Source: an uncultured bacterium (GTDB taxonomy: Bacteria; CAIJMQ01). Taken from it: a stretch of DNA of 21,454 nt. Positions 2,191 through 21,454 of this stretch are shown here, piece after piece. Location: NCBI GenBank assembly GCA_964573245.1, contig CAZNJA010000021.1, positions 1 through 21,454 of the forward strand, given 5' to 3'. The notes beneath the pieces were generated by a model. The model made no database searches. It was not told the DNA's origin and worked only from the letters and a program-made list of their open reading frames with translations. Each line of letters begins with the position of its first letter. Within the stretch, counting starts at the first letter, position 1. Both the position numbers and the translations under genes were made by a program.

Positions 2191-2219
2191 CTCCCACATC
2201 AAAATCTTTGGCGCGGAAG
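2191..2219. repeat. Degenerate family B 29-nt hairpin element downstream of ssrA
   Basis: 21/29 identical to the reverse complement of the mnmA insert, sharing the CAAAATCTTTGG core. Folds on the minus strand with G-U pairs. Confidence 0.6.
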
Positions 2220-3324: not shown

Positions 3325-3395
3325 TTCCCTCTGCAATTTTAAAAATTGCGAGGACTTAGTCCCTGAAATTGCAAAGCAATTTCTAGGGGTAATTT
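3325..3395 (-). repeat. Family C double-hairpin element embedded in an AT-rich array
   Basis: Hairpins at 3328-3353 and 3361-3388. Minus-strand ends AAATTACCCCTAGAAATT and CAGAGGGAA match the ends of the 18021-18098 element. Confidence 0.7.
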
Positions 3396-4570: not shown

Positions 4571-5521
4571 TTACCCAATTATCATATTATCTATCAACCG
4601 CACTTTACCTATTCGGACCGCAAGTAATATTACCACTTCCCCGGTTATTTTTTTAACGGGTCGCAATGTTTTGGGTTCTCTTATTTCGATGTAATCGATA
4701 TTTAACCCTGCATCGTCCCGCCATTGTATCAGTGGCGGGTCTGGTGCAGGGCTTTCTTTCTTTATCATTGTTTGCATTCTTTTCTTAACTTTTTCGGCAT
4801 CGGTTGAGCCGTTTTTTATTAATTTCTTTGCTTCAATTAGTGAACGATAAAGAATTGTTGCGGATTTACACTCTTCTCTGCTTAAGTATGCATTTCTTGA
4901 ACTTTGGGCGAGGCCGTCTTTTGCCCTTACGGTTGGTAAGGTTTTTATTTTTGTATCTATGTTAAGGTCTTTGACCATTTTTTTAATTATGACTGCCTGC
5001 TGATAGTCCTTCTGTCCGAAATAACTCTTGTCCGGCTGGACGATGTTGAATAGTTTCAGCACGACAGTTGTAACGCCTCTAAAATGTCCGGGGCGAATTT
5101 TTCCTTCAAGAATACTGGATAATCCTGTTTCCTCCACATAGGTTGAGAAATTGTCGGGATTCACCCCGTTAGAAGTAAGTCGCCCAGGGCGACTGCCACG
5201 CCTTTGGTGTGGACTTTTAACGGGGTACATGTCTTCAACTGATGGGGCAAAGATTATATCAACACCTTCTTTTTTTGCGATGGTGTTATCGTGAGAGAAA
5301 TTTCTCGGATATTTTTTGTAGTCCTCTTTTGGCCCAAACTGCGTAGGGTTGACGAATATGCTTAATACGACGATGTCGTTTTCTTTTCGCGCTTTTTTTA
5401 TAAGCGAAACGTGTCCGTCGTGGAGCGCGCCCATTGTCGGGACAAAACCTATTGTTTTGCCTTTCTTTTTAAGGGTTTTTATTGTTGATGTTAATTTGTG
5501 TGGGGATTTAATTACTTTCAT
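4571..5521 (-). CDS. panC: Pantoate--beta-alanine ligase with two in-frame palindromic inserts
   Basis: GFVPTMGALHDGH, SIFVNPTQF, RPGHFRGVTTVV, FGQKDYQQ, DGLAQSSRN, RLIDN. Confidence 0.97.
   Translation of the reverse strand: MKVIKSPHKLTSTIKTLKKKGKTIGFVPTMGALHDGHVSLIKKARKENDIVVLSIFVNPTQFGPKEDYKKYPRNFSHDNTIAKKEGVDIIFAPSVEDMYPVKSPHQRRGSRPGRLTSNGVNPDNFSTYVEETGLSSILEGKIRPGHFRGVTTVVLKLFNIVQPDKSYFGQKDYQQAVIIKKMVKDLNIDTKIKTLPTVRAKDGLAQSSRNAYLSREECKSATILYRSLIEAKKLIKNGSTDAEKVKKRMQTMIKKESPAPDPPLIQWRDDAGLNIDYIEIREPKTLRPVKKITGEVVILLAVRIGKVRLIDNMIIG
4706..4751. mobile_element. In-frame palindromic element with a nested hairpin (4717-4739) in the panC C-terminal domain
   Basis: Outer arms CCCTGCATC and GGTGCAGGG; inner CCCGCCATTG-TAT-CAGTGGCGGG; flanked by TTAA at 4702-4705. 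Confidence 0.8.
5164..5225. mobile_element. Family A element, in frame in panC
   Basis: Termini ACCCCGTTAGAAGT and ACTTTTAACGGGGT pair 13/14. Two internal hairpins. Adds 22 aa between MYP and DNFSTYV. Confidence 0.9.
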
Positions 5522-5533
5522 GTTCTTTTAATA

Positions 5534-15702: not shown

Positions 15703-16674
15703 ATGAAGATAAAAGCAATCGCTCTAATTTCAGGTGGGTTGGACAGTGTTTTAGCCGCGAAGATTATATCCAAACAGGCAATTGAAGTTATTGGCGTAAG
15801 TTTTTTAACTCCGTTTTGCGGAAATAATTTTGAGAAAAACATTAACTCTTTGTCTAAGGAATTACATATAGACATGAGGTTGGTGGATATCTCTAAAGAT
15901 TTTTTGCAAATGTTGGCGTCCCCGCGTTACGGCTACGGCAAAAATTTGAATCCTTGTATAGATTGTCGGATACTGGAATTGAAAAAGGCGCATCAATTAA
16001 TGAAGGAATTAAAAGCGGGTTTTATTATTACGGGTGAGGTCTTGGGGCAACGTCCAATGAGCCAAAATAGAAACGCGATGGAACTTATAGAAAAGAAAAG
16101 CGGAGTCGAGGGTTTACTTGTTAGGCCTCTTTGCGGCAAGCTATTTGCTCCTACTATTGCCGAAAAAGAGGGGTGGATAGATAGAAATGGACTTTTGGAC
16201 ATAAACGGCCGCTCGAGAAAAAGACAATATGAATTGGCAGGCAAATACAAAATTTCCGGGTATGGCGCACCGGCAGGCGGTTGCCTTCTTACCGACCCGG
16301 GTTTTAGTTTGATAGTAAGGGATCTCCTTCAATCTGATATGCTTGATATCGGCTCCATAAATTTAAGTAAAACCGGTAGATACTTTAGTATTACCGATTC
16401 TTTTAAATTAGTGGTTGGCAGAGACCAAGAGGACAACCTAAAACTTTTGGAACTTGCCAAGAAAGAGGATGTAATCCTTGAACCGCAATCAAAGGGTCCG
16501 GTTGCAATAGGTAAGGGAAAGAGAGAAAATGAAAACCTTCAAGTAGCATGTCGGATAGTTGCTTATTATTGTAAAAAAACAGACGTAGATGTAAAGGTTT
16601 CTTATGACGGGAAAGAAAAAACAATAAATTGTGCTGGAATTGGTAAATTGGAATTGTCAAATTATAGAGTTTGA
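15703..16674 (+). CDS. ThiI/MnmA-like PP-loop tRNA sulfurtransferase-family protein
   Basis: SGGLDS PP-loop, NPCIDCR, TGEVLGQRPMSQ, RPL, PAGGCLLT. No N-terminal THUMP domain. Confidence 0.85.
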   Translation: MKIKAIALISGGLDSVLAAKIISKQAIEVIGVSFLTPFCGNNFEKNINSLSKELHIDMRLVDISKDFLQMLASPRYGYGKNLNPCIDCRILELKKAHQLMKELKAGFIITGEVLGQRPMSQNRNAMELIEKKSGVEGLLVRPLCGKLFAPTIAEKEGWIDRNGLLDINGRSRKRQYELAGKYKISGYGAPAGGCLLTDPGFSLIVRDLLQSDMLDIGSINLSKTGRYFSITDSFKLVVGRDQEDNLKLLELAKKEDVILEPQSKGPVAIGKGKRENENLQVACRIVAYYCKKTDVDVKVSYDGKEKTINCAGIGKLELSNYRV

Positions 16675-16676
16675 AA

Positions 16677-17765
16677 ATGAACCCCGTTAGAAAACCTACG
16701 AGGAGCTTGTTTGGGTTTTTCAAAGTAAGGAGCAAAAAAATGTCTAAGATGTGTAATGCAGGGGGAGGAAAATTTTCTAACGGGGTGAATAACATTGTTC
16801 GAAAAATAAATGATTTAAAAAAGAAAAGAAATGCTGTAATACTGGTTCATAATTATCAATTGCCAGAGGTTCAGAACATCGCGGACTTCTTAGGTGATTC
16901 TTTAGGGTTGAGCCAGAAAGCAGCGGAAACAGATGCGGAAGTAATCGTGTTCTGCGGCGTGCATTTTATGGCGGAGACGGCATCAATCCTCTGTCCCGAT
17001 AAGATTGTGCTCATACCCGAACTAGCTGCCGGCTGCCCGATGGCGAATATGATTGATGCCGAAGAGGTGCGTAATTTAAAGAAAAAACATCCCGATGCCA
17101 CTGTTGTTGCTTATGTAAACACAACCGCCGAGGTGAAAGCGGAGAGTGATGTCTGCTGTACTTCGGCAAATGCCGTTAAAATAGTTGATTCTTTGCCTGC
17201 TAAAAAAATCATTTTTATTCCTGATAAATATTTAGGACAATATGCTGCAAGTCAGATTAATCCCGTTAGAAATAAATCGCCAGAGGCGATTGCCTCCGAT
17301 GGGTATCGGAGAATTTCTAACGGGACAAGCAAAGAAATAATATTCTTTGAAGGGTACTGCCCTATTCATGTCAAGATTTTGTCGGAAGATATCTTAAGGG
17401 CAAAAAAAGAACATCCTTCTGCCGAAATACTTGTTCATCCCGAATGCACTCCGGATGTAATTGCTATGGCAGACAAAGTGTTTTCAACAACCGGTATGCT
17501 TAACTATGTTAAAAAGACCAAAAGCGAAGAAATAATCATCGGGACTGAAGTAGGAATCGTTTACAGGTTGCAAAAGGAGAATCCGGATAAAAGTTTTTAT
17601 CCCGCTTTCAAACATGCAATTTGCGAAGATATGAAGAAGAACAATTTAGAAAAAGTGCTCTGGTCATTGGAAGAAATGAAATATGAAATAAAAGTGGATG
17701 AACAAATAAGGTGGAAAGCAAAAAAGGCAATTGAGAAAATGTTAGAGTATAGTAGAACAGATTAA
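16677..17765 (+). CDS. nadA: Quinolinate synthase NadA with two in-frame palindromic inserts; start uncertain (16677, 16740 or 16785)
   Basis: HNYQ, GDS, FCGVHFMAE, AGCPMA, YVNT, CCTSANA, PDKYLG, CPIH, HPEC, GTE, CEDMK. Confidence 0.95.
   Translation: MNPVRKPTRSLFGFFKVRSKKMSKMCNAGGGKFSNGVNNIVRKINDLKKKRNAVILVHNYQLPEVQNIADFLGDSLGLSQKAAETDAEVIVFCGVHFMAETASILCPDKIVLIPELAAGCPMANMIDAEEVRNLKKKHPDATVVAYVNTTAEVKAESDVCCTSANAVKIVDSLPAKKIIFIPDKYLGQYAASQINPVRNKSPEAIASDGYRRISNGTSKEIIFFEGYCPIHVKILSEDILRAKKEHPSAEILVHPECTPDVIAMADKVFSTTGMLNYVKKTKSEEIIIGTEVGIVYRLQKENPDKSFYPAFKHAICEDMKKNNLEKVLWSLEEMKYEIKVDEQIRWKAKKAIEKMLEYSRTD
16682..16785. mobile_element. Family A element (104 nt) inserted at nadA codon 2 with a perfect TGAA duplication
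   Basis: Perfect 14-bp inverted repeat ACCCCGTTAGAAAA / TTTTCTAACGGGGT. TGAA at 16678-16681 and 16786-16789. Confidence 0.9.
17261..17325. mobile_element. Family A element, in frame inside nadA
   Basis: Perfect 13-bp inverted repeat TCCCGTTAGAAAT / ATTTCTAACGGGA, plus two perfect 7-bp internal hairpins. Adds about 23 aa. Confidence 0.9.
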
Positions 17766-20309: not shown

Positions 20310-21401
20310 TTGTTTAAAAAAAAAGTTCTGGTTGCAATGAGCGGCGGCGTAGACTCTTCGGTAGCGGCGTTTTTACTAAAAGAAGAGAAAAAATACGATG
20401 TCATTGGTGCAAATTTTAAGTTATTTGATGCTCAAACGAAACCTTATTACAAAAATCAAAACACCAAAGACGCTCAAGCTGTCTGCGAAAAAATAGGGAT
20501 TCCGTTTTACTCTTTTGATTATAGCAGGGAATTCAAAGAGAAAGTTATCAATTATTTTTGCGCAGAGTACTCGAAAGGAAAGACCCCCAACCCATGCGTT
20601 ATGTGCAACGAAAAAATAAAATTTGGCGCACTCTTTAGCAAAGCAAAATCATTGGGCGCGGATTATATCGCAACGGGACATTATGCCAGAAAAGCGCATA
20701 ATAAAAAAACAAAAAGGTATGTCCTAAAAAAGAGTAAAGATAAAAACAAAGACCAATCCTACTTTTTATTCTTTCTGACGCAGGGACAACTTAAATCTAC
20801 TCTTTTCCCGCTTGGGGGTTACACCAAGGAGGAAGTGCGCCAAATCGCGAAAAAGATCGGTTTGAAAACTCACAATAAACCAGAAAGCCAAGATGTTTGC
20901 TTTATCTATGGCCGAGACTACCATGAGTTTTTGGAAACTCATCTAAAAGGTTTTTATAAACCCGGCCCGATTACCCGTAGCAAAGGCGAAGTCGTAGGCA
21001 AACATAAAGGCATCCCGTTTTATACAATAGGGCAAAGAAAAGGCTTGGGACCCCATAAAAAGGCGATGTATGTTACTGGCATTGATAGCAAAAAGAATGT
21101 TATAGTAATCGGAGAAGAAAAAGAACTTTATCAGGACACTTTATTCGCGGAAAAGGTTACATGGACAGGGATAAGCAAATTAAAAGAGCCGCTGAAAGTA
21201 AAAGCCAAAACGAGATACGGGAGCAAAGAAAGCGAAGCGGTTATTTCTCCTACGGATAAAGGGATGGTTAACCCACACACCAAAGATTTTGGTGTGTGGG
21301 TTAAAGTAAAATTTGCCAAACCGCAAAGAGCAATTACTCCCGGACAAGCGGTAGTGTTTTATAATAAAGACATTGTTGTCGGCGGAGGGTGGATAAAATA
21401 A
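20310..21401 (+). CDS. mnmA: tRNA-specific 2-thiouridylase MnmA with an 11-aa palindromic insert
   Basis: AMSGGVDSS, TPNPCVMCN, ATGHYA, KDQSYFL, ESQDVCF, TIGQRKGL, AITPGQ. TTG start with GGGAG upstream. Confidence 0.97.
   Translation: MFKKKVLVAMSGGVDSSVAAFLLKEEKKYDVIGANFKLFDAQTKPYYKNQNTKDAQAVCEKIGIPFYSFDYSREFKEKVINYFCAEYSKGKTPNPCVMCNEKIKFGALFSKAKSLGADYIATGHYARKAHNKKTKRYVLKKSKDKNKDQSYFLFFLTQGQLKSTLFPLGGYTKEEVRQIAKKIGLKTHNKPESQDVCFIYGRDYHEFLETHLKGFYKPGPITRSKGEVVGKHKGIPFYTIGQRKGLGPHKKAMYVTGIDSKKNVIVIGEEKELYQDTLFAEKVTWTGISKLKEPLKVKAKTRYGSKESEAVISPTDKGMVNPHTKDFGVWVKVKFAKPQRAITPGQAVVFYNKDIVVGGGWIK
21272..21300. mobile_element. Family B 29-nt perfect hairpin with TTAA duplication, in frame in mnmA
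   Basis: TTAA-CCCACACACCAAA-GAT-TTTGGTGTGTGGG-TTAA. Confidence 0.92.
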
Positions 21402-21454
21402 AATTACCCCGAGAAATTCAAAGAATTTCCGGCCCCTAGAAATGCAGAGCATTT
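21401..21454 (+). repeat. Family C element, second near-identical copy, truncated by the window end
   Basis: 52/53 identity to 18021-18073. Confidence 0.9.

Follow-up and report, generated by a model that had tools for sequence, protein, structure and literature searches.

An in-frame 29-nt hairpin in mnmA of an uncultured bacterium, a probable minimal mobile element sharing its ends with small GIY-YIG nuclease genes

The window analyzed here, a 21,454-nt stretch of DNA from an uncultured bacterium (contig CAZNJA010000021.1), carries on its + strand the gene mnmA (20310..21401; tRNA-specific 2-thiouridylase, 363 aa), and within the part of this gene encoding the C-terminal domain lies a perfect hairpin (21268-21304) that leaves the reading frame open. 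The question raised by this locus is what the hairpin is, how it came to lie in a conserved gene, and what might have moved it. The initial annotation, made from the letters of the window alone, regarded it as a very recent insertion of an extremely small mobile unit, bounded by a duplicated TTAA and adding 11 residues to MnmA. We consider it probable that the hairpin is a minimal 29-nt non-autonomous element, read by its host as a surface loop and moved in trans, probably, by a small GIY-YIG nuclease.

The hairpin in mnmA and its empty sites

The assignment of mnmA, the host of the insertion, is supported by the list of open reading frames (ORFs), by orthologues, and by matches of the product of 20310-21401 to solved MnmA structures (E-values from 1e-78 to 5e-71). 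A repeat finder returned 21268-21304 as the longest inverted repeat of the whole window, with 17-nt arms that are 100% complementary and 3 nt apart. Read along the + strand, it consists of TTAA (21268..21271), CCCACACACCAAA (21272..21284), GAT (21285..21287), TTTGGTGTGTGGG (21288..21300), and again TTAA (21301..21304). The two 13-nt segments are the left and right terminal inverted repeats, called arms below (the family consensus of the left one is CCCCCACACCAAA), and GAT is a spacer or loop that differs among the copies of the family. The outer TTAA motifs are taken as the left and right copies of a 4-bp target-site duplication, on the grounds of family-wide 4-nt direct repeats and of the empty site in relatives. 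The perfect 17-bp stem including its TTAA flanks, as initially annotated, was confirmed both by the inverted-repeat search and by the letters of 21268-21304. Given its base composition, the window should contain ~2.5e-6 stems of this kind (17 perfect pairs, 3-nt loop), and the degenerate motif that had been suggested for a genome search occurred once in the window and in none of 100 shuffled windows.

A structure of this kind might arise without any mobile DNA, either by a local template-switch (quasi-palindrome) mutation, since strand switching in replication can create perfect palindromes, or as an artefact of assembly, the genome being a fragmented metagenome bin. Against this stands, at the locus itself, the presence of the mnmA hairpin in independent contigs. 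The hairpin is covered without a single difference by Logan contigs from two public salt-marsh runs, which may include the sample behind the genome assembly (X2 record 8, equal to 21231-21381, and X1 record 3, equal to 21244-21394). The polymorphic empty alleles that the initial annotation had proposed to look for, whether as an empty joint or as a deletion, were found in none of the contigs of 4 runs, at a depth of 2-5 and in contigs to which rare variants are invisible.

Comparison with orthologues bears directly on the insertion. MnmA loci were matched in 28 of the 30 other genomes and 29 open frames were aligned, including a second paralogue of one genome; the row of the genome G003 is uninformative because its contig stops before the insertion site. 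The peptide NPHTKDFGVWV, encoded by the 11 in-frame codons at 21270..21302 (+ strand), is carried by 0 of the 28 informative rows; its broad presence in MnmA orthologues had been named beforehand as the observation that would speak against an insertion. Two extra residues occur at the insertion site in 3 rows, which points to a loop of variable length there. At the level of DNA, the empty site reads GAT TTG GTA AAA GTG AAA in two genomes of the same genus (G001 and G002) and GGT TTA ATT AAA GTA AAA in one of the same family (G004). The window reads ATG GTT AA[C CCA ... GGG TTA A]AG TA, and the removal of 33 nt leaves a single GTTAAA and restores ATG GTT AAA GTA AAA TTT, precisely as annotated at first. 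A separate fragment of G003 (C100:6-191) spans query residues 289-363 in 62 codons and is consistent with an empty site, as judged from its length and not residue by residue. By this comparison of sequences, the 33 nt in mnmA are a lineage-specific insertion that adds 11 residues to the protein.

Since 29 and 4 nt add up to 33 and no stop lies in the frames used, mnmA stays open. In a model computed with AlphaFold2 from 15 sequences (mean predicted local distance difference test score, pLDDT, 88.5; predicted template modeling score, pTM, 0.86), the insert forms residues 320-330 of the 362-residue query and is modeled with low confidence as a loop that connects strands 307-313 and 330-339 in the C-terminal beta-barrel. 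Translation of the insert into a tolerated surface loop is what we infer from the open frame, from the loop position, and from related inserts in mfd that have persisted in more than one species.

A dispersed family with 4-bp direct repeats

The genome of the window (G000) comprises 1.456 Mb in 110 contigs, with 38% GC and a completeness of 93%. The family to which the mnmA hairpin belongs (family A) is defined by the arms CCCCCACACCAAA / TTTGGTGTGGGGG. With up to 3 errors allowed relative to the consensus of the arms, G000 has 9 copies, compared with 0 in the shuffled genome; additional arms are parts of longer or nested copies. Five of the 9 copies lie inside open frames of 229-1128 aa, and in-frame copies are found in mnmA, in a LarC-like gene, and in mfd. 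The LarC-like gene carries a second G000-specific insertion of 11 residues (VHPHTNALVMG), which belongs to the same family, lies at a TAAA site, and is absent from G001, G003, and G004, where the sites are empty. The mfd copy is decayed and is common to G000 and G003, and it is not in G004 or G005. Only the mnmA copy combines both perfect arms with a perfect 4-nt direct repeat. The claim of a very recent event stands to the extent that this copy is the sole one of the 9 in which the arms pair without any mismatch and the duplication is perfect, and that it is not in the congeners; the dating itself is coarse, the congeners being only 68-69% identical in MnmA. A further copy within the window (2191-2219, CTCCCACATCAAAATCTTTGGCGCGGAAG, right flank TTTAC) is decayed and is located within a 125-aa open frame.

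The family extends far beyond this genome. Its exact core occurs in 3 of 9 genomes of the phylum (G000, G002, and G003), all of them from the genus of the window. A scan of one genome per species, 596 Gb in total, gave at least 123 loci matching the 18 specified bases of the core, where by our estimate some tens of matches could arise by chance alone. Of the 123 loci listed, 66 extend the stem by CC..GG or more, an extension that chance would rarely produce. The titles of the records that hold these 66 name Patescibacteria (many kinds), Omnitrophota, Ratteibacteria, Planctomycetes, a Nitrospira metagenome-assembled genome (MAG), Deltaproteobacteria MAGs, and others; at one locus (L099), from a record titled Candidatus Ratteibacteria, the gene context equals that of a G003 locus. 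Five genomes are especially rich in the repeat. In G032 the arm occurs 71 times in the forward and 74 times in the reverse orientation, that is, in ~70 copies, and in G031 and G033-G035 it occurs 11-25 times per strand, with 0 occurrences of the reversed control; nearly all arms listed for these genomes are paired at hairpin distance. The hairpin had no match among 72,556 plasmids and only one 18-nt chance match among 50,697 phage records, and a stricter hairpin pattern had 0 matches in the viral contigs of IMG/VR. The same arms at many unrelated sites, in many genomes, and in the products of different assemblers leave hardly any probability for a local mutation or an assembly artefact, and the family census excludes that reading. 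The 9 copies against 0 in the shuffled genome, together with the copies elsewhere, support the view of the initial annotation that the mnmA hairpin is a mobile unit, a member of a family that is multi-copy in G000 and well outside it.

It might be argued that TTAA, being its own reverse complement, is merely the end of the palindrome. Among the 66 extended copies, perfect 4-nt flanks are direct in 26 and inverted in 3. The mean flank agreement is 2.68 of 4 positions, compared with 1.70 for shuffled partners (maximum 1.95 in 200 shuffles). The repeats include TTTA, TAAA, TTAA, TTCA, TTGA, TCTA, CGAG, and CCTG, and both flanks favor T at position 1 and A at position 4 (T-N-N-A). The same was seen for 77 distinct longer elements of the family, of which 40 have a perfect 4-nt repeat and 1 has a 5-nt repeat, with the types TTCA, TTTA, TTGA, TAAA, TCAA, TGAA, TTTG, and TCCA. 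Because 4-nt T-N-N-A direct repeats occur throughout the family, the TTAA pair in mnmA reads as a genuine 4-bp target-site duplication, as had been proposed, and the element proper measures 29 nt. This is also the commonest form of the family, and with the 4 bp added it preserves the frame.

The duplications are relevant to one explanation of how such hairpins spread. Repetitive extragenic palindromic sequences (REPs) are extragenic, produce no target duplication, and go with a Y1 enzyme of the HUH type. The family copies resemble REPs and REPINs in being short, GC-clamped hairpins present in many copies, and a hairpin of this size and form could be REP/REPIN-like or derived from IS200/IS605, with a Y1 (HUH) transposase of the REP-associated tyrosine transposase (RAYT) type transferring it in single-stranded form. 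One domain of the PF01797 family (Y1_Tnp), the sole one in G000, is indeed present at C12:23931-24167. It forms the N-terminal, IS200-like part of a 436-aa protein (C12:23859-25169; locus L034, 1429-2739), in which the HUH histidines are not evident by eye, and from its sequence it looks inactive; no RAYT partner was found in G000. Furthermore, variable 4-nt direct repeats flank the copies, whereas Y1 transposition makes no target duplication, the spacer does not co-vary with the flank as judged by eye, and the 5 of 9 copies within long ORFs (at least 229 aa) differ from extragenic REPs. This explanation is, therefore, regarded as very improbable. Fused to the Y1-like part of this 436-aa protein are a predicted membrane segment and, at the C-terminus, a domain similar to the neighboring 202-aa protein.

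Longer members and the small GIY-YIG gene

A metagenome scan for the 18-nt end CCCCCACACCAAACGAGC gave at least 122 loci. Among the 132 arm occurrences listed, 105 have a partner end, and the sizes of the elements cluster at 56-72, 105-150, and 299-307 nt; the ends of the family read CCCCCACACCAAA(CGAGC). In G035 (Doudnabacteria), for example, elements of ~135 nt with family ends and TTTA flanks are found between ribosomal protein genes. Fifteen distinct elements of 299-307 nt have the ends of the mnmA-hairpin family, and this ~303-nt class is filled exactly by one ORF on the opposite strand, which runs from a start 8 nt within one repeat up to the other repeat. Of 16 aligned elements, 13 have this ORF intact, with 84-86 aa, and in the other 3 it is cut short or interrupted. 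The 85-aa protein encoded by these relatives of the hairpin, which itself has no gene, consists of the GIY-YIG catalytic domain only (PF01541, E-values from 2e-16 to 3e-17 in 3 of 3 tested). The larger family member with the same ends, a form that the initial annotation did not notice, encodes a predicted GIY-YIG nuclease and not a known transposase. The nearest solved relatives of this protein are UPF0213 proteins of unknown function (PDB 1ZG2 and 1YWL, E-values 3e-6 and 8e-6). The ratio of nonsynonymous to synonymous substitution rates (dN/dS) among 11 ORFs has a median of 0.137 (40 of 55 pairs with finite dS), and the small GIY-YIG gene is under purifying selection. All 9 elements with 150-nt flanks on both sides lie in unrelated contexts, with one 19-nt flank match, and are 71-84% identical to one another. 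The repeats of full-length elements are 18-19 nt long, longer than the hairpin arms, and are shared by the intermediate sizes, so that the size classes look like an internal deletion series.

GIY-YIG domains are known from selfish elements, and the 85-aa protein has its catalytic domain in common with the GIY-YIG homing endonucleases. The palindrome could accordingly be the recognition or cleavage site of such an enzyme, with the gene homing into hairpin centers and the hairpins spreading by another route. The position of the ORF exactly between both arms would fit, as would nested insertions into hairpin loops, which exist (e.g., in uvrC and at C24:14624), and a phylogenomic survey of the GIY-YIG domain describes homing endonucleases as cutting uninterrupted target sites (PMC1564403). 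This scheme accounts neither for the 4-bp duplications nor for the arrival of hairpins at new sites, the longer repeats of full-length and intermediate elements have the look of internal deletion, and arms of 13-19 nt are very short for homing driven by homology. Homing endonucleases also carry extra DNA-binding domains, have one cognate site, and come without inverted repeats or duplications, whereas the 85-aa protein is the catalytic domain alone, and its gene lies between inverted repeats and recurs at unrelated sites. No extra DNA-binding domain was found in it, no single cognate site emerges from the 9 elements, and the model of group I intron endonucleases scored only 19-23 bits against a cut-off of 56. 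We judge the homing explanation to be rather improbable, although less so than the one based on a Y1 enzyme.

The distribution of nuclease genes and repeats across genomes was also compared. All 5 hairpin-rich genomes (G031-G035) have homologues of the 85-aa protein, and in 5 of 5 the best GIY-YIG match adjoins family ends, with both arms in 3 by the strict pattern, and one arm plus a mismatched arm in 2. Among 31 relatives, paired family-A arms were found in G000, G002, G003, and G015 only, and a GIY-YIG match with an E-value of at most 1e-18 in 4 of 4 genomes with paired arms, compared with 2 of 27 others. Neither paired arms nor such a match is present in the congener G001 (10 contigs). Around more distant GIY-YIG genes the inverted repeats are different ones (ACCCCCGCACCAATCCG, CCCCGCCCTTTTGGC, ACCCTGTGAAATAA, and ACCCAGCACC, and in G003 and G018 ACCCCGTTAGAGATA); several of these other repeats match other hairpin families of G000, two of them in the window. 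Five small GIY-YIG ORFs are present in G000.

The strongest competitor of the nuclease is a conventional DDE transposase. The hairpin could be a minimal MITE (miniature inverted-repeat transposable element) of an IS1380, IS5, or piggyBac-like enzyme, encoded elsewhere or lost from the bins, with the GIY-YIG gene as cargo or as a settled homing-endonuclease gene. The combination of inverted repeats and a fixed 4-bp T-N-N-A/TTAA duplication is what DDE enzymes classically leave behind when they cut with a stagger. CC(C)...GG(G) ends together with TTAA or other 4-5-bp, T-N-N-A-like duplications are features of piggyBac, IS1380, and IS5-type elements, and insertion sequences are often missing from metagenome bins. 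The DDE domains PF13701 (IS1380-type) and PF01609 (IS4/IS5-type) had no match in G000, and in G031-G035 they had one match only, in an insertion sequence of G032 with unrelated ends. No cognate DDE transposase with family ends was thus found with these two domains in the six genomes, which are incomplete bins and in which other DDE families were not searched. The arm positions listed include no spacing typical of insertion sequences, and only 1 of the 105 partnered arm occurrences has a candidate partner at ~1.1 kb, a loose match. In addition, the GIY-YIG ORF is the only gene between family ends, fills the element exactly, and is under purifying selection, and different GIY-YIG genes pair with different repeats. 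A DDE transposase as the moving enzyme is, on this evidence, unlikely, but it carries more weight than homing.

The inverted repeats, the fixed 4-bp duplication of variable sequence, the deletion series, and the GIY-YIG gene as the sole gene are the reasons for taking the nuclease as the mobilizing enzyme. In the proposed pathway, the nuclease would recognize the inverted repeats and move both its own element and, in trans, the gene-less hairpins. Insertion would take place at T-N-N-A sites cut with a 4-nt stagger and repaired by the host. In mnmA, an element made of two 13-nt terminal inverted repeats and 3 nt would have been inserted at TTAA, with the duplication of 4 bp. This chemistry is one that we infer, and the role of the nuclease as an enzyme acting in trans on the hairpin has, as far as the sequences allow one to judge, about an even chance of being correct.

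Several points weigh against the nuclease-driven pathway. To our knowledge, GIY-YIG enzymes act only as hydrolytic nucleases and not in strand transfer, and joining would, for this reason, need host repair or a further partner; we know of no precedent for a transposition pathway with a nuclease only. The phylogenomic survey likewise treats GIY-YIG enzymes as nucleases (PMC1564403). A full-length element with intact family-A ends was not found in the G000 assembly (93% complete, 110 contigs), in which the two ends of the closest GIY-YIG gene (C27:11434-11724), CCCCACACCTTT and GGGTGTGG, are variant and uneven. The two arm-negative genomes with close GIY-YIG genes, G010 and G018, have them without paired family-A arms, and the counts of co-occurrence are not independent, as 3 of the 4 arm-positive genomes represent one genus. 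Of the 15 GIY-class elements just 4 have a perfect duplication, and of the 9 copies in G000 just 1. The test of frame length is weak as well: length plus duplication is divisible by 3 in 12 of 20 coding-like copies and in 13 of 38 non-coding-like ones, where coding-like denotes an open frame of at least 60 codons on each side and nothing more.

Known systems and other hairpin families

Among known systems, bacterial MITEs (Correia, Nezha, ERIC, and others) are similar, being described in a review as geneless, present in many copies, bounded by inverted repeats and a duplication of fixed length, and carrying the ends of a larger gene-bearing element (PMC10969869). The hairpin has perfect 13-nt inverted repeats, and its family has the same arms, a fixed 4-bp duplication, dispersed copies, and filled as opposed to empty sites (mnmA and the LarC-like gene). 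Known MITEs differ in that they usually measure at least 50 nt and originate from transposase-bearing insertion sequences of 800-2000 bp (PMC10969869), whereas the mnmA hairpin consists of only two repeats and 3 nt, and the gene-bearing form is ~303 bp long and encodes an 85-aa GIY-YIG nuclease. Rickettsia palindromic elements (RPEs; Ogata et al. 2000, 2002), covered in the same review, are ~150 bp long and inserted in frame in housekeeping genes (PMC10969869). As with the mnmA hairpin, they are palindromes that lie in frame in unrelated housekeeping genes, where the extra peptide is tolerated (PMC10969869). RPEs are elements of ~100-150 bp that are confined to Rickettsia and have no known mobilizing enzyme. 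The hairpin, set apart from them by description and not by sequence, has 29 nt, a clear 4-bp duplication, a distribution over many phyla, and ends common to nuclease-coding elements. The term GIY-YIG has 0 occurrences in the MITE review (PMC10969869), and "inverted repeat" none in the GIY-YIG survey (PMC1564403). No description of GIY-YIG mini-elements flanked by inverted repeats, or of these hairpins, was found in the literature outside subscription journals and supplements, which were not covered.

Small dispersed repeats (SDRs) of 21-27 nt were reportedly described in heterocystous cyanobacteria by Elhai et al. in 2008. SDRs are also very small, apparently mobile, and sporadic in their sites, and some are nested in other repeats. 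By description, they differ in sequence and host range, and they are not known to have an associated gene or such an anatomy of repeats plus duplication.

The hairpin, taken by itself, may be regarded as an in-frame, MITE-like element of a known kind, and the link to GIY-YIG possibly as a new class. It could be proposed that this is an undescribed class of ultra-small mobile elements, with an autonomous form of ~300 bp that encodes only an 85-aa UPF0213-like GIY-YIG nuclease, with 13-19-nt inverted repeats, 4-bp T-N-N-A duplications, and many nuclease/repeat subfamilies, which extends over the Candidate Phyla Radiation and further uncultured phyla and regularly settles, in frame, in essential protein-coding genes; for a proposal of this breadth, the reasons for and against are evenly balanced. 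If it is correct, then mobile DNA can be far smaller than assumed, with 29-nt non-autonomous and ~300-bp gene-bearing units in place of insertion sequences of 800-2000 bp, and the gene-bearing form would be the smallest self-mobilizing DNA element known. A bare GIY-YIG nuclease may then mobilize an inverted-repeat element with duplications, a chemistry not known for that fold, and a role would be offered for many orphan, stand-alone, small GIY-YIG (UPF0213-like) genes. Conserved proteins of streamlined uncultured bacteria, among them MnmA, Mfd, UvrC, and the LarC-like protein, would gain short peptides, and the elements would keep giving rise to loop insertions, to errors in annotation, and to broken contigs in metagenome assemblies.

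Hairpins of other kinds are abundant in G000, where 1148 of at least 11 pairs were counted, compared with 125 in the shuffled genome. Several further families have the form CCC...GGG; clustering by k-mers chained unrelated low-complexity hairpins and served only as a list. In the window, a palindromic element of 64-65 nt from the ACCCCGTTAGAAGT... / TCCCGTTAGAAAT... family lies in frame at 5163-5226 in a - strand ORF (4574-5527, 318 aa), and a second one at 17261-17325 lies in frame in a + strand ORF (16668-17762, 365 aa). This type of repeat also bounds GIY-YIG genes in G003 and G018. In uvrC of G000 (C42:9300-11009), an in-frame nested pair is formed by a CCCGCCTGCCAAA...TGGCGGGCAGG hairpin within the loop of a CCCGTTAGAAA...TTTCTAACG hairpin. 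A thymidylate-synthase-like gene carries, at the same codon, a CCCCCACACCAAA hairpin in G003 (L038) and a 90-nt element of the CCCCGTTAGAAGT family in G000 (C5, ~31300), a shared position that could be a hot spot or the result of replacement. The elements in truB of G000 (C3, ~13200) and of G003 (L042) differ from one another and lie several codons apart.

Some small GIY-YIG genes are found inside or beside tRNA genes, as in G000 (C1:10056-10331 and C14:13169-13513), with duplicated tRNA halves around them. At the site of G000 (C81) that corresponds to it, a GIY-YIG homologue carried by G002 beside a tRNA gene (L317) is missing; this pair, considered as an empty site, was not used as support, as it involves 21-nt direct repeats and not inverted repeats. 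At one locus of G035 (L169, C13:2100-2900), family arms flank, as seen by eye, a tRNA-like sequence, and one arm directly follows its 3' part.

Two small hairpins of the CCCTAGAAAT/CCCGAGAAAT type are located after the mnmA stop (21408-21454), the second of them cut by the end of the contig, and 3356-3392 holds a related hairpin. Several contig ends of G031 carry hairpins too, and from such positions it follows that hairpin repeats probably break assemblies.

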